From Narcine bancroftii (lineage: Eukaryota): 64,000 nt of DNA. Below are positions 3,300-64,000 of the stretch, one piece after another (within the stretch, counting starts at the first letter, position 1; every line of letters begins with the position of its first letter). The DNA lies in contig NC_091472.1 of assembly GCF_036971445.1 (NCBI RefSeq), positions 270,940,001 through 271,004,000 on the forward strand, in the 5' to 3' direction. Under the pieces are notes generated by a model. The model was given only the letters and a program-made list of their open reading frames with translations, was not told where the DNA came from and ran no database searches. Both the position numbers and the translations under genes were made by a program.

Positions 3300-4075
3300 A
3301 CATCTGATGCAAGGATCGACAAAGAGATAGACAACAGACTCGCCAAGGCAAATAGCGCCTTTGGAAGACTACACAAAATAATCTGGAAAAAACAACCACC
3401 TGAAAAAACACACAAAGATCAGCGTGTACAGAGCTGTTGTCATACCCACGCTCCTGTTCGGCTCCGAATCATGGGTCCTCTACCGGCATTGCCTATGTCT
3501 CCTAGAACGCTTCCATCAGCACTTGTCTCCGCTCCATCCTCAACATTCATTGGAATGACTTCATCACCAACATCAAAGTACTTGAGCTGGCAGAGACCGC
3601 AAGCATCAAATCCATGCTGCTGAAGACCCAACTGCGCTGGGTGGGTCACATCTCCAGAATGGAGGACCATCGCCTTCCCAAGATTGTGTTATATGGAAAG
3701 CTCTCCACTGGCCACCGAGACAGAGATGCACCAAAGAAGAGGTACAAGGACTGCCTAAAGAAATCTCTTGGTGCCTGCCACATTGACCACCGGCAGTGGG
3801 CTGATATTCACTTCCAACCGTGCATCTTGGCGCCTCACAGTTCGGCGGGCAGCAACCTCCTTTGAAAAAGACCGCAGAGCCCACCTCACTGACAAAAGAC
3901 AAAGGAGGAAAAACCCAACACCCAACCCCAACCAACCAATTTTCCCTTGCAACCGCTGCAACCGTGCCTGCCTGTCCCGCGTCAGACTTGCCAGTCACCA
4001 ACGAGCCTGCAGCACACGTGGACATAGCCCTCCATAAATCTTCGTTCGGGAACCCAAGCCAAAGAAGAAAGAAGA
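3300..4075 (+). mobile_element. RTE-clade LINE, 5'-truncated, frameshifted
   Basis: SDARIDKEIDNRLAKANSAFGRL, QLRWVGHISRMEDHRLPK and C-terminal C2H2-like FPCNRCNRACLSR..SH; ends in an AAGA-rich tail; homologous to 18594-19514. Confidence 0.95.
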
Positions 4076-11184: not shown

Positions 11185-12468
11185 ACAATCTTTCAAGATG
11201 TCAAACAATTCACATGTGGTTAAAGTGCACATTCCATTTTTAATTAAAGGGTATTTGTGTACAGTTTGGCTTGACCATGTAGACATTTCAATACATTTTA
11301 TACATAGTCCCCTCATTTCAGGGCACCATTATATTTGAGACATAGCAATGGTATATATATTAAAGTAGTCATGCTTTTTATACTTTGTTCCATATTGTAT
11401 ACAATGACTGCTTGAAGTCCGTGATTCATGAACATCACCAAGTACTGAATATCTTCACTTTTGATGCTCTGCCAGGCCTATACTGCAGCTATCTTCAGCT
11501 CTTGCTTGTTTCAGGGTCTTGTCTCCTTGGATTTTCTCTTCAGCAAATGGAAAGCATGTGCAATTGATTTTAAATCACGTGACTGACTTGGCCATTCAAC
11601 ATTTTCCAGTGTTTAGCTTTGAAAAAACTCCTTTGTTATGTTTGTGACCATTGTCTTGCTGAAGGAACTGCCATCCAATGAGTTTGGAGGCATTTGCTCA
11701 AATTTGAACAGATAAGATGTATCCACACACTTCAGAATTAATTTTTGTACTGCCATCATCTGTAACATGAAGATGTAGCTAGTACCTGTGGCAGCCATAC
11801 ATGCCCAGGCCATAACACCCTACCACCATATTTCACAGATGACGTGCTGTGTTTTGGATTTTGGGAAGTTCCTTTATGCCTCCACACTGCTCTTGCCATC
11901 ACTGTGATATAGGTTAATTTGGTCTCATCTGTCCACAAGCCCTTTTACTAGAATTCAGCAGGCTCTTTTAAATATTTCTTGGCAAACTGTAATCTGGCCA
12001 TCTTATTTCTGTATTTCTGTTCATGCTTCTGCTGACAGTAGTCATTGATACATCCACACTTGCATCCTGAAGAGGATTTCTTATCTGTAAAACAGTCATG
12101 AGGGGATTCTTGATTATTATGATGAGAATGTTTATGTCATCAGCAGTGGAGATCTTCCTTGGCCTTCCAGTCCCTTTGTGATTACTGAACTCTTTCTTCT
12201 TAATGATGTTCCAAACAGTTGATTTTGTTGATGCTAAAGTTTGGGCAATGTCTCTTACTGTTTTATTCGTTTTATCAGCCTCATAATGGCTTCTTTGACA
12301 TTCATTGGCACAACTCTTGTCCTCATGTTGAAAAATGGCAACTACAAACTCCAAAGGTTATCCAAAGCTTAGAAGCAAGTCTAGCTTTCTTACAGCTGCA
12401 GCAATGAAACAATTAAACATACCTGAGCAATCACAAGTATCTGTGAAGCCAAATGTCCCACACATTAT
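11185..12468 (-). mobile_element. Tc1/mariner DNA transposon, decayed transposase
   Basis: HTH TVRDIAQTLASTKSTVWNIIKK, GRPRK, WTDETK, VKYGG, MAWACMAA, QQDNGHKH and WPSQSRDLKSI motifs; inner inverted-repeat ends at about 11329-11343 and 12454-12468. Confidence 0.92.
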
Positions 12469-12878
12469 TGTAAGGGTAAAAATATATTTCATAGATTAAA
12501 CCAATATGTAGGTAGCTATCAAGGTGTTTTTTAAATATGCTTTGAGTGTCTCTTAGCAACGTCTTTGAGTCAAGGTCTTATGGTTTGTATAGAGAGAGAT
12601 TATACATTAATTTGGTTTCCTTTGTTCTACGAAATAGTAAGGAATTAGAATTTCCAACAATTTTTATTGACCATCTATCAAAGTTTAGCAATGTATAACA
12701 ATGTTTAATGGCTTGTAACAATGTATAGTAACTGATAATAATGTCAACAATGTTTAATAAACTCTGGAAAGCTCAACTCAACTTTATTACAGATTTGTTT
12801 GAAAGAGTCTAAGACAACAACAACATTCTGCTATCCTCCAAGTGATTATTAAGGAAAATAGTCACTAAAATCTTTAGT
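12469..12878 (+). repeat. putative BEL 5' LTR
   Basis: Begins TG exactly at the Tc1 breakpoint, contains aataaa (about 12756) and precedes the gag leader; 3' boundary uncertain. Confidence 0.55.
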
Positions 12879-13125
12879 CAATTCAGACTATTGATTGGGC
12901 TCTGTTGAGAGCACTTCAAACTCAAAGAGGCACGATCGACAACAGCATCATCAAGGACATTGAAGAAGTTGTAAGCCTTGTTAATGGATTCCTTCTGCAT
13001 TTTTATTGAAAGTTAGAACCCCAGTTTGGAGAAACTGCTGCTTGTCCTTTGAGGACTGTTTTGGTTTTGGAGTTATTGTCGTGCATGATTGATGTCGGAA
13101 TGTGATGGTCTGCTGAACGGATAAG

Positions 13126-13439
13126 ATGGCAGCTGCGGCTGAAACTGTTGCCCCTGAGGGTCTCTCTTAGTGAAAATGAAGGTCATGGAACTTAAAGAAG
13201 AATTGCAATGTCAACACTTAGAAACAGGTGGAAACAAAGCTGTTCTTTTTGCGAGACTGATCGACGCAATAGAAAAGCAGAAGGTTATGGCTGCTGGGAA
13301 TACAAACCCCACAGAATTACAGCAAAAAAAAACATCAATAGAAACTCAGCTCAACCACATGAAAATGGATGAAGCTGTGCCACAAGCTGATGGGGTGGAG
13401 GATGGGCCAATCCAGAGTGGAGACAAAGTCAGATATTAA
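13126..13439 (+). pseudogene. BEL gag N-terminus with SAP domain
   Basis: aagATGg start at 13126 (MAAAAETVAPEG), one frameshift, then LVKMKVMELKEELQCQHLETGGNKAVLFARL, matching the SAP consensus LxxLKVxELKxELxxRGLxxxGxKxxLxxRL. Confidence 0.8.
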
Positions 13440-15518
13440 GGTGACATCTGACATACAGAATGAAGTATGACCAAGTGATAATGCATCAAATACTGGAAGC
13501 AGAAGGAGTTTTAGACCAAGTTCCAGTGTTTCATGTACTGCATCTAGGCATGTAAAAGGTCAGGCCACTCTTGAATTAGAACAAGAATAGTTTAAGGATA
13601 AAAAAAAAGTCTTAGAAAACCTAGAGAAACAGCAGGAGGAACAGCTTTGAAGAACCAGGAAGTAGCTAAAGGAGGCAAAAAGAATAAATGGAACTGAGAA
13701 AAAAAAACTGTTAATGAGTCCAAGTCGAGGGTTCTAGAAGGCTGTAAAGTATCTGGGACTCAAAGTAAATTACCTAAAGTATCTAACATTTTGGAGTCAC
13801 ATTTTGAGGAAGGATAATAGAAAAAGGAATTATTTAATACTAAAGAAGAGCCTGTGTTATGGTTACAAGACTTGAATGGTCCCGAACTAGCCAGGTTAAG
13901 GCACGGTGGTGCCAAATCTCAAACCCCAATAATGACCTCAGTGGACAGAGATGTGAGCCAAATGCCATCTTACCAACCAGAATACTACCCACTTCCGACA
14001 GGTAATAAAAATCCAGGTGAACAAAGTAACTTATACCCAGGCATAAGAAAGTAGGATGAAATGGGTGCCCAAGAGAGAGATTCCAGTTTTTGATGGTGGT
14101 GAACTTCAATCTCAAGTGTTTATGAAAAAGTTTGAATGCAGTATTGAAATTAAGAGCCAAAGCTCAGAGGATTGTCTATATTATTTGGAAGATTTCATGG
14201 GTGGGCATCCATATGAAGTTGTAAAGAGTTGTCATCATACTGTCCCAAACAAAGGATTAGATAAGGCTAAGTTTTGACTAAAGAAGCATTTTGGCATCAA
14301 TAAGACTGGATGGTACAAAGACTTTACAAGCTGTCAGCCTTTTTCTAAGAGGATGTTACAATGTCATGATGGAGAACTTGACATATCTACTAATACGCTA
14401 ATCGTTTTAAATAAATTAACATACCAGATGAAATAACATAAGAACTTCATTTGTTGAATATCAGAAAATAAATGAAACAGCTGCTTTTAAGGATTTGGTG
14501 TTCATTGAAGGGCAAGAGAACCTTGTCATGGAAATATCAAAGGCAATCAAACAGTAAGTAAAAAAGTTAAGAGGTCCAAATCATACCCTCAACCATTTTT
14601 TTTAAAGTACATTTGTCACCTCCCTGGCAGTGGAAGATAAAGAAATTAAGGAAAATGAAAGTTTGCTTGCAGTGAAGAAATGTTTGTTCTGTGATGATAA
14701 GCTTGCTTTGGAAAGGTGTGGACAGTTGGAAAAGAAAATGCATAGTGAGAAAATTACATTTTTGAAGGAAAGGCTATGTTTTGGCTGTTTGTGTAAAGGA
14801 CACATCAGCAAAAACTGCAAAAAATGATTCAGCTTTGACATATGTACTCAAAAGCATCCCAAAATGCTACATATCTTCCAGGAAAAGAAGAATATGGAAA
14901 AGATACAAACAACAAGAAAAGTAGCAAATGAAAACAGTGCAGAAGCCTTGGTATTGACAAGTGATTTTACTAGGGTCAGAGAGAACAACTGCAAACTTTT
15001 AACAGTATCTGTGCAAGTCAAGGTCAAGAAGTACAATAGTGCACATTTATGCATTTCTTGACCCAGGAAGCTCTGCGTCTTTTTGCACTCTGGGGCTAAT
15101 GATAAGGTTTACTTGCAAAGAAGCAGTACAAAAATTCTATTGAGAACTATAGGTTAAATTAAACACACTGAAACCAGAGATCGCTAGACAAGATAGTAAT
15201 GATTTTTATGAACTTCCAGCCCTTTACACTCAGAAAGCTATGCATGTGCTAAAGGAAACATCCCATATCAAAACGACATTGAACCACGGACACATTTGAT
15301 AAATGCTTGTTTACACAAAATCAACTCTGAGATAGAGTTGCTGATTGGTTCAGATGCACCAAAAGCTCTGGAACCACTAGATATGATAACGAGTGTGGGA
15401 GATGGACCCTACACTGTCAAAACTATGCTTGGTTGGGTGATTAATGGACCATTAGGAGGAAGAAAAGAGGTTCAAAATCAGTTGGCTATAAGTGTTAACA
15501 AAATATTGATTGTTAAGC

Positions 15519-16870
15519 ATTTTTTGAATATTTTATTTAAAAATTTGCATCCATGTAATTAGATATCGTACAGAGTCAATACTTAGTTATATTTAAAACT
15601 GCAATGATTACATGGCATTAATATTTCCCCCTTGCCTGTCCTCCCCTTCCTCTTACTCTCTCCCATTATAAACGTTGTAATGATAAAAATATATATGATA
15701 TATAATTATAAAAAGGGATTATGTAAAGAGAAAAGTATAAAGATTATATAGTCTGGATTGCACAAAGGATTAGCTCACACACTGTGATTTTACAGTATTT
15801 ATATTAACAACTTTAGGGAAGAAGATTATTACAGGTCTTAAATGGCCAGTAGTACATTTTTACATGTTTATCTCTAAACTTTGCATACATGGACTCCAAA
15901 TTTGTATGAATGTTGAATATTTCTCAAATTATATGTTATTTTCTCCAAAGGTATACAACTTTAAATTTCCAAATGTGCATCTGATTTCCAAGTCACTGCA
16001 ATACACTTCCTTGCCACCACTAAAGCTATTTTGATAAATTTAATTTGATAAACTTATAGTTTCAATTTCAATATTATTCTTTCTATATTCCCCAACAAAA
16101 AAATAAATCTGGATTTTGTGTAATAAAATCTTTGCTATATCCATCCTAAAAGTTCCAACTTTAGAACATGACCAAGTAGAAGGCAAAACGGTCCCTATTT
16201 CTTCACCACATCTAAAATATTTATCTGATAAATCCAATTTGATTTTGAGCAATTTTTGCAGTGTTAAATGTAATTGATGTAAATAATTATATTGAACTTA
16301 ACTGTATTTAACATTTATAATATTTGTCATACAATCTTGACAGAGTTTTGCCCATCTTTTCTCATCAATTCTAATATTTAAATCAACCTCCCATTTCTGT
16401 GTAGATTTATGTATTCCCTTTTTAATAGTTCCTGCTTGTAGTAAAAGATACATTGCAGAAATATATTTCTTAGTATAATCTCTCCTGATAGGAACCTCCA
16501 TCTGGTAAGTACATTGTTAAACCTAATTTTCCTGCAAATATCCCCTCAATTGAAGATTGCAAAAAGTGTATTTTGGGTAATTACAGATTTATTTCTTAAT
16601 TGTCAAAACAACATCAATTAACCTTGTTCATAATAATCTTCTACATTTTTAATACCATTGTGAAACCAAATATTTAAAAAAGTGTTTATCTTTAGTAAAA
16701 GGTATAAGGTTATTTTGAATGAAAGGTGTTTTCATTATTTATCTCGTTCCAAATGGTAATCAAGTGCACAACAGTCATTAATTTTGAATCCCAATTTTAT
16801 AAACAAATTCCTCTTCATATTTTGCTCCTATTTTATACATCTCTATTTTGACCATATTAAGCTTGGTTCT
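15519..16870 (-). mobile_element. L1-clade LINE 3' portion inserted in BEL pol
   Basis: ORF2 C-terminal zinc-finger region (FRCGEEIGTVLPSTWSCSKV); T-rich tail at 15520; 9-bp TSD ttgttaagc at 15510-15518 and 16871-16879. Confidence 0.9.
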
Positions 16871-17409
16871 TTGTTAAGCTTGATAGGCTGTGGGAGGAGC
16901 AGTTCCTGAGTGCCTCAGGGACAACCGAGATCCTTCAAAGGAAGACCAGTAGTTATTGGAATCAGCGACAAACAAAAGCTGTCAAGCTAGTTAATAATCA
17001 TTATTGCATTGGATTGCCTTTGAAGAAAAGGGAAATATGCATGCCTGATAATAGAAGCACTATCGAACAATGTACACCAATTTTAAAAAGAAGATTCAAG
17101 AAAGATTCTTCCTTTCAGATTACACCAAATGTGTGTCTGACATGAAATGCAGAGAATGTCCTAGATAATACTTTGGAATGTAGTGATGGCAATAAATGGA
17201 ACTTACCACTCCATGGGGTTTTGCATTACAGAAGAAGAAAAAGTTTTATGTGGTGTTTGATTGTGGAGCAACCATTTTTTTGGGGGGATCTGGCAGGTTT
17301 CACTAAATTCTCAACTCTTACAGGGTCTTGATAAGACAAGTACATTGATAGGAATCTTCACTACATTCTGTAAAGAACATGTCATCATGACTGCAGACAT
17401 TGAAGCAAT

Positions 17410-19570
17410 TGATGCGATATTTGGGGAATGGGTTGGATTGGGAATAATAAAAATTAAGGATTTATATATCCAAGGCAATTTTGATTCATTTGAACAATTA
17501 ACAGTTAAATTTAACCTTCCAAATAGGCATTTTTAAAAAAAAAATATCTATGAATTAGGCATTTTGTCCAGTCTGAATTCTCCAATTTTCCTCAAATTCC
17601 CATAAATCAAGGGTTCTTGATTTTTTTATTTTTGATTTAAAATTTCCCATAGTGGATCAATAGCTATTATTTATAGTAATTTGATAGACCTAAGAATATG
17701 TTCAGGGATAGGAATCAAAAATGAATGGGAACGAAACTTGAATACATCAATTTCAGATGAAATTTGGATAATCTATTTGATCTGATTAATAATACTTCAT
17801 TCTGTGTGCAACATTGTTCAATACAATTTAAAGTTGTACATAAAATACATACATCCAAAGTTGGATGATATAATTTTTATCCTGATGTTGATCCATTATG
17901 TGACAAATGTAAAATTTTTGAGACCCCTCTGATTCATATGTTCTGGGAGTGCGCAGAACTACAAGAATATTGGGAACAATTCTTTAAAATTCTACACAGA
18001 TTCTTATGATTAAATTAGAACTGTTTTGTTTTATTGGTTTATTTGGTTATTCTCTAGAAAAGAGGATTACCTTGAATTCAACTCAAAAAAGAATAATAGC
18101 TTTCACTTCATTGATGGTCAGAAGAGCAATAAGATAAAAAGTCAGCATTGCACCAAATCATATGGAATGGCTGCAAGATATTATGTCTTTCTTGAGTTTG
18201 CAGAAAATTAGACAAAAAGCTAAAGAGATCAAGATTGAATTTAACAAGATATGATGGCCATTTATGGATTATTATCATAATTTGATTACTTAGGCAAGGG
18301 TTTTCTATCTGATGTCTGAGTCAATACTCAACTCTTTACAATTTATTAGCTGGTGACCGTTTTTAGTGGGATTAGTATGGTTTTTGTCTTCTTTCTTTTT
18401 TTCTTATTTTTTTTATAAATTATTGGTCCATTTAGATAATCACAATGTATATCTCAATATTAGAATATGTGAAATTTTCATAAGGATATTTCACCTTTTT
18501 TTGAGAATTATATGAAAAAATGTATAAGATGTGACTCATATTCAGTATTGCATTATATAAATCTTATATAATTATATAATTAATTACTATCTAAACTGCC
18601 AAAATGTTTGGCCTGGAAGTCAGCCTGAAGAAAACTGAGGTCCTCCATCAGCCAGCTCCCCACCATGACTACCAGCCCCCCCACATCTCCATCGGGCACA
18701 CAAAACTCAAAACGGTCAACCAGTTTACCTATCTCGGCTGCACCATTTCATCAGATGCAAGGATCGACAATGAGATAGACAACAGACTCGCCAAGGCAAA
18801 TAGCGCCTTTGGAAGACTACACAAAAGAGTCTGGAAAAACAACCAACTGAAAAACCTCACAAAGATAAGCATATACAGAGCCGTTGTCATACCCACACTC
18901 CTGTTCGGCTCCGAATCATGGGTCCTCTACCGGCACCACCTACGGCTCCTAGAACGCTTCCACCAGCGTTGTCTCCGCTCCATCCTCAACATCCATTGGA
19001 GCGCTTTCATCCCTAACGTCGAAGTACTCGAGATGGCAGAGGTCGACAGCATCGAGTCCACGCTGCTGAAGATCCAGCTGCGCTGGATGGGTCACGTCTC
19101 CAGAATGGAGGACCATCGCCTTCCCAAGATCGTGTTATATGGCGAGCTCTCCACTGGCCACCGTGACAGAGGTGCACCAAAGAAAAGGTACAAGGACTGC
19201 CTAAAGAAATCTCTTGGTGCCTGCCACATTGACCACCGCCAGTGGGCTGATAACGCCTCAAACCGTGCATCTTGGCGCCTCACAGTTTGGCGGGCAGCAA
19301 CCTTCTTTGAAGAAGACCGCAGAGCCCACCTCACTGACAAAAGGCAAAGGAGGAAAAACCCAACACCCAACCCCAACCAACCAATTTTCCCCTGCAGCCA
19401 CTGCAACCGTGTCTGCCTGTCCCGCATCGGACTTGTCAGCCACAAACGAGCCTGCAGCTGACGTGGACTTTTACCCCCTCCATAAATCTTCGTCCGCGAA
19501 GCCAAGCCAAAGAAACAATGTATACATGTAATATTTCCCTATATCAAATTAATAAAAATGTTTGAAAAAG
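17410..19570 (+). mobile_element. L1-clade LINE 3' portion inserted in BEL RT
   Basis: WVGLGIIKIKDLY..SFEQL, QFKVVHK, CDKC..LIHMFWEC; aataaa and A-rich tail at 19551-19570; imperfect TSD gaagcaat (17402-17409) and gaaacaat (19571-19578). Confidence 0.88.
18594..19514 (+). mobile_element. young RTE-clade LINE, 5'-truncated with open 285-aa frame
   Basis: ORF 18604-19461 with FTYLG, QLRWMGHVSRM and C2H2 CSHCNRVCLSRIGLVSH; CpG retained; lies in the L1 3' UTR. Confidence 0.97.
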
Positions 19571-20679
19571 GAAACAATGTTCCATTAGGTGTAAGTACTG
19601 AATGAAGAACATGACTTGTTACTTCCTTTGGTGGCTTGATGGAGACTGCGGTTAGAACATGGTAGAGCACAGAATGACAGGGCATCTATTTGGGGTGATT
19701 TTATCACCAAGTTGTGCCAACTTTGCTTTTAGGAAGTATGCTGAGGACAATATGGAACAATTTAACTCTCGAGCTATAAACACCATCAGGAATAACTTTT
19801 ATGTGGGTGACTGTCTCACTTGTGCAGCTACAGTTAAAGAAGCAATAGCTCTTTATCATAAGTTGAAAGTCAATTGTTTTAAGGGAGGCTTTCATCTTAT
19901 CAAATGGACAAGTAACAATCACCATGTAATGGCTGTCATACCTGAAAGAAAGAGGACAAAAGAAATGAAGAATTTGGAATTAGACCATGAGAACCTTCCT
20001 GTAGGGAGGGTATTAGGTGTTCAATGATGTGTTCAGTGTGACATTTTTAAGTTCAAAATCATTTTGAAGGACTGACCTCTCACATGCAGGAGGATTCTAT
20101 CAACAGTCAGTTTGGTATATTATCCTCTACAAATATTGGCACTAGTTGTCCTGACTGCCAAGAAGATCCTGCAAGCTTTGTGTAGGGAAACGATTGGTTG
20201 GATTGATGAGATATCAGAATCCATTGTACAAGAATTGATGTATTGGATTTGGATCTTCGCCTGCTGGAAGACTTAAAGATTAACAGATGCTTCAAACCCA
20301 CAAATCTTGGAACTGTAACATCTGTTCAATTGCATTATTTTGCTGATGCATTTGAACACGGTTATGGAACTGTTATTTAACTGTTACTGCATGATAACAA
20401 GGATAGGTACATTGTGGATTTGAAAAGGGGAAAGGCCAGACTGGCTCCATTGAAACTGGTCACTATCCCATGAATGGAGTTGAAGGTTGCTACCATGGCA
20501 AGCAGAATGGACACAATGTTGAAAGAGAGTTGCAGATGAAACTAACACACTCCATACTTTGGACAGATGGCACCTTTGTACTCAAATATATTAACAATAA
20601 AACCACAAGGTTTTGAAATTTTGTAGGTAACAGAATCACAGAAATTGATAAAGTCTCATGTCCAATAGAGTGGAGGTAT

Positions 20680-21110
20680 GAAACGTCAACCAGCCATCTA
20701 ACTCCACAGATGCTGCCCGATCCTCTGAGTTCCTCCAGCTGATTGTTTTCTTTTTGCTTCAATTTACAACATCCGCAGTATCTTGTACCTTCATCTGTCT
20801 CTCTACTCCAATTTATATATGATGCTGGAGGGGTAGCAGCACATTGTCCCATCTCCACTCCTTCTTGCTTTTGCAGGGAAAAGTCTCTCCAAGACATCCT
20901 TGTCCAGTCTTCCCTCTCCACGCATCTGTTTATCTTCTCAGGCACTTACTATTCTAAACGTGGAAAGTGCAAAACCTGTCTGTGGTGAACAGAAATTCAC
21001 TGACTGTGTAGTTCAGATGGCTGGCTCCCCTCTCACCTACCCCAATATAAAGCATGGTTTTCCTGCCTTACCTCAGATTCACCTGAGGACTATTGTATAT
21101 ACCAGCCGTT
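20680..21110 (+). mobile_element. Penelope-like element fragment
   Basis: gaaacgtc..acagatgctgcccgatcctctgagttcctccagc pseudo-LTR, then REKSLQDILVQSSL..GTY..RGKCKTC linker resembling 33550-33720. Confidence 0.7.
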
Positions 21111-37524: not shown

Positions 37525-38551
37525 CACTATGAAAAACGAAATGAATTTGTTCCTGCTGGTCCCCCAGTGTATCAGCTTAGTCACACCATTCCATATCAGG
37601 TTGAGCCGAGTTTGGTTTAAACAAATGAACAAACATAATTGGGCTGTACTTTATTACACAGAAACATCCATTCCAACCCATCTAATTTATCTTTGACAAA
37701 GCCTACATAATCTCATCCCTTTGACCAAATTTCTTATTTCTTTCTCCATTATGGGTACATTTTTAATGTTTCAATGTAAAATATATTATAAATCAGAATA
37801 ATTTTAATTCTGAAATCTCACAAATTTTCAATTGATGCATATTTTGCACAAAAAGCAAATTCTCAGCCAACTGATAGTTTTACCATTAATGCCCCTTTCA
37901 ACGAGCACTGTTGAGCTAATTATTTTGCCCTATTATCATAACCTTGGCACCATTCATCAGAAAAAGAGAGGAGCTGTTGCCTCCAGGCAGGGTTGAATCA
38001 GTTCCCATTGTTCTGTCATCAGAGACTCTGACAGATTTGATAATGTTCTCCTTATTTTAAAAAAATTGGATCATAGGTAGCAAATATTTTGTTATGTCAT
38101 TTTCCTTTTGGTAATTGGGGCTGATCCTTATGTATGAGTTTTAAGTGATCTACAAGAGGTTATGTTCGAAAAAAATGCTACCTGGGTCGTGATATGTAAA
38201 TAGAACTCAACCCTCTGAGGATATGTTTTGCATAATCATTTACAGATGCTGGTGCAGATTTTAAAAAATGCACAGGAGACATGACTGGCAGAATCATATT
38301 GATGAAATTTAAAGGAGGCAAACATATAGCAGGAAATGGCAAAATTGGAGTAGAGCATTTTGTTTGGAAAATGTTTCAAAAAAACATCTCAATCATCTTT
38401 GTTCATTGGTTGAAAAGAGGAGAGCAATATAATAGATGCCAAACACTATGAAAGAAAATCTTTGAGGATATGAGCCTCTGGGCATCTGACAGAACAACTG
38501 AGCATGAGACATTTGTTTGAGAGCTGTTTATGGAGGCAGTACTGCTTGACA

Positions 38552-39035
38552 GAGGTCGACAGCATCGAGTCCACGCTGCTGAAGATCCAGCTGCGCTGGA
38601 TGGGTCATGTCTCCAGAATGGAGGACCATCGCCTTCCCAAGATCGTGTTATATGGCGAGCTCTCCACTGGCCACCGTGACAGAGGTGCACCAAAGAAAAG
38701 GTACAAGGACTGCCTAAAGAAATCTCTTGGTGCCTGCCACATTGACCACCGCCAGTGGGCTGATAACGCCTCAAACCGTGCATCTTGGCGCCTCACAGTT
38801 TGGCGGGCAGCAACCTCCTTTGAAGAAGACCGCAGAGCCCACCTCACTGACAAAAGGCAAAGGAGGAAAAACCCAACACCCAACCCCAACCCACCAATTT
38901 TCCCCTGCAACCACTGCAACCGTGTCTGCCTGTCCCGCATCGGACTTGTCAGCCACAAACGAGCCTGCAGCTGACGTGGACTTTTTACCCCCTCCATAAA
39001 TCTTCGTCCGCGAAGCCAAGCCAAAGAAGGGGAAG
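38552..39035 (+). mobile_element. young RTE LINE 3' end with perfect 11-bp TSD
   Basis: Near-identical to 19040-19514; actgcttgaca at 38541-38551 and 39036-39046. Confidence 0.97.
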
Positions 39036-63647: not shown

Positions 63648-64000
63648 TTTACCTATCTCGGCTGCACCATTTCATCGGATGCAAGGATCGACAACGAGAT
63701 AGACAACAGACTCGCCAAGGCAAATAGCGCCTTTGGAAGACTACACAAAAGAGTCTGGAAAAACAACCAACTGAAAAACCTCACAAAGATTAGCGTATAC
63801 AGAGCCGTTGTCATACCCACACTCCTGTTCGGCTCCGAATCATGGGTCCTCTACCGGCATCACCTACGGCTCCTAGAACGCTTCCACCAGCGTTGTCTCC
63901 GCTCCATCCTCAACATTCATTGGAGCTATTTCATCCCTAACATCGAAGTACTCGAGATGGCAGAGGCCGACAGCATCGAATCCACGCTGCTGAAGAGCCA
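63648..64000 (+). mobile_element. young RTE LINE, runs off the window edge
   Basis: Near-identical to 18724-19076 (FTYLGCTISSDARID...). Confidence 0.97.

Follow-up and report, generated by a model that had tools for sequence, protein, structure and literature searches.

A BEL/Pao retrotransposon family in the 3.3 Gb genome studied here carries a SAP domain at the start of its Gag protein, and this domain was almost certainly captured from a host gene of the SAFB family. Capture of host domains by mobile elements is already known from a few cases in which the donor is rarely identifiable; what is new here is a SAP domain at the start of a BEL Gag together with an identified host donor. Donor, splice junction, start codon and graded intermediates are found in one genome, presumably that of a cartilaginous fish to judge from its repeats, which allows a captured domain to be traced as it evolved; retrotransposon repression has recently been demonstrated for the gene family of the donor. 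In addition, BEL/Pao targeting and nuclear entry are poorly understood, and a natural swap of the Gag N-terminus makes the role of this region testable. No published report of a SAP-bearing BEL or LTR Gag, or of SLTM capture, was found among the papers listed by searches of the open literature. The term SAP is absent from the main text of a BEL/Pao survey (PMC3118150) and from the text and four of the five supplements of a Repbase gene-capture study, whose file 1 may bear on SAP capture (PMC3597677).

The window, the whole 64,000-nt stretch of DNA analysed (G000:C9:270940001-271004000), contains a copy of this family with the following parts.

12469-12869 (+): 5' LTR, beginning TGTAAGGG, last bases decayed; 72-82% identical to the 3' LTRs of other copies
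12870-13125 (+): leader, the last ~30 nt clearly and ~100 nt probably from the host 5' UTR; aligns to the host-like copies
13126-13128 (+): start codon, paired with the host ATG in the alignment; here SAP lies in another frame
13170-13274 (+): SAP domain, attributed to host SAFB-family exon 1 (PF02037, 36.2 bits; 62% DNA identity over 38 codons)
13266-13280 (+): five codons attributed to the start of host exon 2 (nearer exon 2 than intron 1 in 80 of 82 copies)
13281-13437 (+): low-complexity linker with no clear match to further host exons; low-confidence region of the model
13438-13731 (+): Ser-rich stretch and coiled coil of BEL Gag, broken (tblastn, P0002 169-269, E 1.6e-6)
14020-14595 (+): DUF1759-like capsid part of Gag, broken (tblastn, P0002 389-609, E 1.6e-23)
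14681-14872 (+): three Cys-His motifs, the middle one (CX2CX4HX4C) intact (translation)
15018-15518 (+): protease region, broken (tblastn, P0005 and P0039)
15519-16870 (no strand): later insertion in the element, which we take to be a LINE-like 3' fragment (alignment gap against all other copies)
16871-17409 (+): Pol, first RT piece (tblastn and alignment to other copies)
17410-19570 (+): later insertions, including a young LINE fragment at 18593-19515 (98% identical copies elsewhere)
19571-20680 (+): Pol, RT to the Pao peptidase A17/RNase H region (57% to P0005 1144-1352; PF05380, E 1.3e-8)

The sequence-only reading of this DNA had described a Gag that starts with a SAP domain, and this description held: the peptide reads as described in the frame 13158-13439 and its Pfam score (E 4.5e-9) was well above the curated cut-off of 23.9 bits. 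The start codon does stand in a good Kozak context (A at -3, G at +4), and the LTR and leader placed upstream of it were located; the LTR ends agreed with those of paired copies, and no second LTR copy lies in the window. The single frameshift that had been proposed was right in that the ATG and SAP frames differ, but it understated the damage, as there is a stop at 13437 and more frame changes and stops follow through Gag and Pol. The copy is badly decayed, with Pol split by two later insertions; the start codon is in frame with SAP in most other copies. The coiled-coil, DUF1759-like and Cys-His parts expected downstream were recovered by tblastn and translation, but DUF1759 obtained no Pfam score in this copy (PF03564 scored below its cut-off in two others). 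BEL/Pao Gag typically has three Cys-His motifs, and in the window each of the outer two has one ligand changed. The match of the element to other copies ends at about 20680, and neither integrase nor 3' LTR was found in the window. GC content of the Gag region is 35-41%, that of an AT-rich element. A Tc1/mariner-type transposase fragment (11968-12460, -; HTH_Tnp_Tc3_2, E 0.0014) lies directly upstream of the LTR, so the BEL element may have inserted near its end. Elsewhere in the window a young LINE family, presumably RTE-like, occupies 18593-19515, 3301-4066, 38547-39028 and 63648-64000, with copies up to 98-99% identical.

Searches of the genome showed that SAP is a regular part of this family. 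A protein search gave at least 150 family matches (150 of 150 scored, from 662 candidates), and a DNA search with 13000-14400 returned dispersed copies, mostly 69-79% identical (40 of 1057 candidates scored). SAP was present in 18 of the 19 other top DNA matches, and a mechanical count over 50 loci, four of which had no SAP match, gave an upstream Met in open frame in 33 of the 46 copies with a match; on these counts a separate insertion of SAP, which the earlier reading had allowed for, was rejected. PF02037 matched 22 of 24 aligned copies at E <=0.05. Furthermore, when 36 of 129 further PF02037 matches were fetched, 29 had BEL protein matches downstream, four were host genes and three were element-like loci without a Gag match. 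SAP is open in frame with the Gag coiled coil in L034, L035, L036, L037 and L047. The frame from SAP to DUF1759 could be covered by overlapping open frames of four copies (L034, L032, L027 and L021), but no single fetched copy was open throughout; no intact copy of the element was present among those found, and the family is decayed.

LTR pairs were recognised in ten fetched copies, with ends TGTAAGGG...CTACA, 84-92% identity over aligned columns and K2P distances of 0.09-0.18 in local alignments. Target-site duplications of 5 bp, read by eye, flank three of these ten pairs (exact in L030 and L035, one mismatch in L023), and a conserved TTAGTCAAT follows the LTR, where a tRNA primer-binding site would lie. 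The family was assigned to BEL/Pao because of Pfam matches to Peptidase_A17 (PF05380) in the window and to PF05380, DUF5641 (PF18701), Integrase_H2C2 (PF17921) and, below threshold, DUF1759 (PF03564) in other copies; L122 and L123 are also collinear with full BEL proteins (Gag-PR-RT-RH-IN order). Contigs from two other organisms (runs X5 and X6; records 22 and 30) span SAP into the element linker, so the family is not private to the window genome. Summed contig depth over the element was far higher in X5 and X6 than in the runs of organisms A and D, and this may reflect larger or younger subfamilies there, depth not being copy number. An orthologous window insertion was not seen among the pieces listed from other organisms, in which gaps carry no weight. 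At two near-identical loci, L039:5032-9779 and L040 (G000:C1 and C11), which probably arose by segmental duplication, an old SAP-BEL copy contains a young Ty3/Gypsy-type element with a frame of 1372 aa and 175-bp LTRs that share 96-98% identity. The LTR at L128:460-790 (oriented) contains a tandem array with a period of ~39 bp.

A genome-wide SAP search found the candidate donor among CpG-rich host exons, at G000:C29:46626268-46626366 (-). One kb beyond this exon 1 lies an exon whose translation begins AIEEE, and RRM exons with RRM matches in the PDB and an ER-rich exon come after it, in order within 42 kb. Proteins of the SAFB family have an N-terminal SAP, a central RRM and an ER-rich C-terminal part, as laid out in the available sections of PMC10901741, and the same exon order therefore places the C29 gene in this family. 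Two other SAFB-type exons lie on C8 at a distance of 0.53 Mb from each other; where the C29 SAP has Val-Lys-Thr, they have Asn-Lys-Ser as in SAFB2. The donor is likely SLTM, the name that we presume for the C29 gene.

The comparison of copies with the host exon supports the capture at several points. Over 38 codons, L088, L100, L101, L104 and L108 were 86-92% identical in DNA to the C29 exon 1 SAP, L097 84%, the L064 group ~61-71%, the window 62% and the farthest copy 49%, so that the subfamilies form a gradient of likeness from 92% through the window down to about 50%. C29 was the nearest of six host SAP exons by DNA for 75 of 84 copies; these counts leave out nine of 93 segments (six host genes, L019, the duplicate L040 and L076). 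Past the end of exon 1, 80 of 82 copies were nearer exon 2 (77%) than intron 1 (41%), and in L121 and L123 an exact run crosses the exon 1/exon 2 junction. Upstream, five host-like copies share the C29 5' UTR and most of them also its ATG. Host-like copies agree with the host UTR at 63-77% of the last 30 nt and, from there out to -90, at 50-67%, compared with a shuffled maximum of 45%. The alignment of the window leader scored 75, whereas the best of 200 shuffles reached 33. The sequence shared with the host upstream of SAP thus takes in the ATG plus 30 or more UTR bases, probably about 100. The presence of exon 2 codons and not intron 1, together with UTR and ATG, shows that the captured piece is the 5' end of a spliced mRNA. 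It comprises the SAP exon, 5' UTR sequence, the ATG and the first five exon 2 codons, the RRM and ER-rich parts having been left behind. Additionally, the host-like copies are true elements, as seen in L123, where LTR similarity occurs at either end and BEL protein matches extend over the rest of the polyprotein to its last part.

All of the 58 closest proteins were BEL Gags or polyproteins, and those with a species name came from bony fish. PF02037 was annotated in none of the 58 in precomputed Pfam data, many of them being N-terminally incomplete, and a SAP profile run against them reached E 1.2 at best. Among ten of these proteins inspected, the five with a long N-terminus (P0002, P0003, P0005, P0012 and P0013) have another, helical-looking domain instead of SAP, and bony-fish Gags align with our copies from the Ser-rich stretch onward. 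This different N-terminal domain in the SAP-less fish Gags indicates that SAP replaced the usual N-terminus; no match to the bony-fish type of N-terminus occurred among 132 fetched loci. An intact SAP-BEL protein was absent from 76 candidates in a weak search of longer proteins with the window ORF, and from 7992 scored with a SAP-plus-coiled-coil alignment, an insensitive search that missed the expected fish Gag matches. When a SAP profile was compared with 1.84 billion representatives, again a weak test, the best 150 of 496 were all generic SAP proteins, and BLAST of these 150 against the 58 BEL proteins gave no match. An equally insensitive ESM Atlas search with P0003 showed no SAP among the DUF1759 clusters listed. 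Apart from this, P0204, a protein of 200 aa with a similar SAP at its N-terminus and a coiled coil after it, is possibly ORF1 of another mobile element.

We propose that a BEL/Pao element swapped its own Gag N-terminus for the 5' end of a spliced SAFB-family mRNA, the likely route being template switching during reverse transcription on a co-packaged mRNA. SAP is fused in frame to the Gag coiled coil and has spread through several subfamilies, in which it was likely retained as a dsDNA tether that would hold Gag particles on chromatin before integration. Tethers encoded in Gag have precedents in foamy virus Gag and MLV p12 (PMC6282019). We give this combination, replacement of the N-terminus by a captured host mRNA followed by retention of SAP as a Gag-borne tether, about an even chance. 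A somewhat weaker case can be made for SAP having been re-tuned over a long active history into a working tether or decoy, with the full series preserved and at least two other organisms carrying the family; this we would rate slightly below even.

The pattern of conservation within SAP is consistent with a DNA-binding role. The host residue was kept in 88-96% of 81-84 copies at L9, E12, L13, L18, G22, K24, L27, R30 and L31, a retention near the ceiling set by post-insertion decay, and in <20% of copies at 14 of the 38 SAP positions. K24 was the best-kept residue (96%), followed by G22 and R30 (93% each), across ~40-50% DNA divergence; in our mapping K24 aligns with SAFB2 Lys53. The SAFB2 mutant K53A/S54A has lost DNA binding, and the SAFB2 SAP binds only dsDNA, with micromolar affinity and a slight AT preference, binds neither RNA nor ssDNA and has some tendency to dimerise (PMC9958909). 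The equivalents of SAFB2 Ser54 and Arg45 are variable in the copies (22% and 37%). Net dN/dS between subfamilies was <1 in 21 of 21 pairs, with the interval <1 in 10 of 21. These pairs lack independence, saturation affects some of them, and neutral decay by itself would yield ~0.85 with this method. Host and window group differed at a net dN/dS of 0.56 (0.20-1.64), which is not significant, and the plain pairwise value of 0.80 (0.51-1.19) is uninformative. Many copies were gathered by SAP searches, which biases the sample towards conserved SAPs. Taken together, the data argue with moderate strength that a folded, DNA-binding SAP was kept. An AlphaFold model of L034, a weak one (pLDDT 63), has two helices around a loop, and Foldseek with this model returned no SAP match; by sequence, the domain matched the solved SAPs 1zrj (E 7.5e-8) and 2kvu (E 1.6e-4). 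Of the functions suggested earlier for the domain, RNA packaging is unlikely, given the dsDNA-only specificity of the SAFB2 SAP, and targeting of AT-rich sites left no signal in seven insertion flanks (mean GC 0.39 vs 0.38 in the window), which are too few for power.

Alternatively, the capture may have mattered for the host 5' UTR and start codon, SAP being a folded and harmless N-terminal cap, an account that we consider unlikely but worth weighing. UTR and ATG were indeed captured with the exon, most of the conserved positions lie in the hydrophobic core, as expected in any folded passenger, the dN/dS intervals are wide, and the subfamily of L061, L075, L078, L083 and L090 is far diverged. 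Against this, the residue kept best is a surface lysine that matches a DNA contact of SAFB2, the UTR decayed faster than SAP (12-58% identity outside the host-like copies), and no SAP-less subfamily appeared among the 19 top DNA matches, one truncated copy apart. It is improbable, though in line with the dsDNA-only specificity of the SAFB2 SAP and with the AT-rich element, that the domain binds the element's own double-stranded cDNA in the particle and serves in its packaging, protection or delivery to integrase; many Gag copies would supply avidity, but the Cys-His motifs act at the nucleic-acid core of the particle, from which the very start of Gag usually points away. We regard as more doubtful still a role in counter-defence, with the SAFB-family piece acting as a decoy for matrix-attachment DNA or partners, or making silencing of the element costly to the host. 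SAFB1, SAFB2 and SLTM suppress L1 and also LTR elements in mice and flies, according to the available sections of PMC10901741, and the dimerisation tendency of SAP would suit such a role. However, that suppression acts via RNA binding with no SAP requirement demonstrated in those sections, the element DNA diverged fast from the host (62% in the window), so that mimicry of sequence was not kept, and the element SAP protein drifted towards generic SAPs.

The least credible account gives SAP two origins: the window type would stem from some hnRNP U-like gene or a different mobile element, and a later, separate capture would have produced the host-like copies. Protein identity of the window group is 45-48% to hnRNP U-like exons vs 38% to C29, the best PDB match in a sequence search was 1zrj, 9 of 84 copies are nearer hnRNP U-like exons in DNA and base composition may bias third positions, but DNA identity of this group is 62% to C29 vs 49-51% to hnRNP U-like exons (third codon positions, 61% vs 30-35%), ATG context and exon 2 codons are shared, and in the SAP-region tree the copies branch off one after another from the host. 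The DNA comparison largely refutes two origins for the window group, only the L061 group being truly ambiguous, and an hnRNP U origin was rejected on the same comparison. Comparison with the host SAP genes hence replaced the hnRNP U relative named by the sequence-only reading with the SAFB-family gene on C29; the hnRNP U likeness is, as judged from the sequences, convergence at the protein level, and this drift accounts for both the first impression and the 1zrj match. In many lineages the donor G-V-K has changed to G-N-K at SAP column 23, the state of the C8 SAFB paralogs, and this too is convergence because the DNA of those lineages stays nearer C29.

A single capture is the reading that we infer from the trees. 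In the Gag tree, from which 36 of 93 segments with <130 aligned residues were omitted, the host-like copies lie at an unresolved base next to P0001-P0004 and the rest form one clade (support 96-97). In the free tree, which has weak support at this point, the SAP label has to change twice, and a tree holding all SAP copies together was not rejected (p-AU 0.435). L009, L012, L016, L020 and L055 are placed differently by the SAP-region and Gag trees, which suggests recombination between subfamilies. In L061, L075, L078, L083, L089 and L090 the SAP has diverged strongly and the leader does not resemble the host UTR; this L061 group, which has a very long branch, may share the origin of the others or stem from a second acquisition. 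The Gag of L100, L101 and L104 is very near the bony-fish Gags P0001-P0004 (inner branch 0.03, P0001 end branch 0.09), which hints at a horizontal transfer between fish lineages before the capture.

Lastly, the SAP-BEL family can be set beside known systems. Its nearest named relatives are the bony-fish BEL/Pao polyproteins P0001 (Epinephelus moara), P0003 (Merluccius polli) and P0005 (Pimephales promelas). The bony-fish elements have the same Ser-rich stretch, coiled coil, DUF1759 (55-62% to a decayed copy), Cys-His motifs and Pol order, and P0001-P0004 fall in a 100%-supported clade with our copies; unlike these copies they are without SAP, their N-terminus, where present, being a helical-looking domain of ~110-160 aa (the P0001 and P0004 sequences are without an N-terminus and hence uninformative on SAP). 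SAP has been reported as an accessory domain in Zisupton DNA transposons and in Chlamys-1_pPol Penelope-like elements, which are not LTR elements and carry it outside Gag, with no donor named in the available part of the source (PMC8557442). The foamy virus Gag CBS and MLV p12 are likewise chromosome attachment modules encoded in Gag, but they bind nucleosomes via short peptides (PMC6282019), whereas SAP binds DNA and its tether function in SAP-BEL is a proposed one. The nearest parallel, CopiaMBD of centipede and spiders, is also an LTR lineage that co-opted a host DNA-binding domain of a silencing-linked family, for which targeting was proposed (PMC6673714, available part). It is a Copia element with the MBD in the Pol ORF and binding shown by assay, while SAP-BEL is a BEL element with SAP at the start of Gag and predicted binding; beyond CopiaMBD, SAP-BEL lets the donor gene, the splice junction and the intermediate stages be seen.
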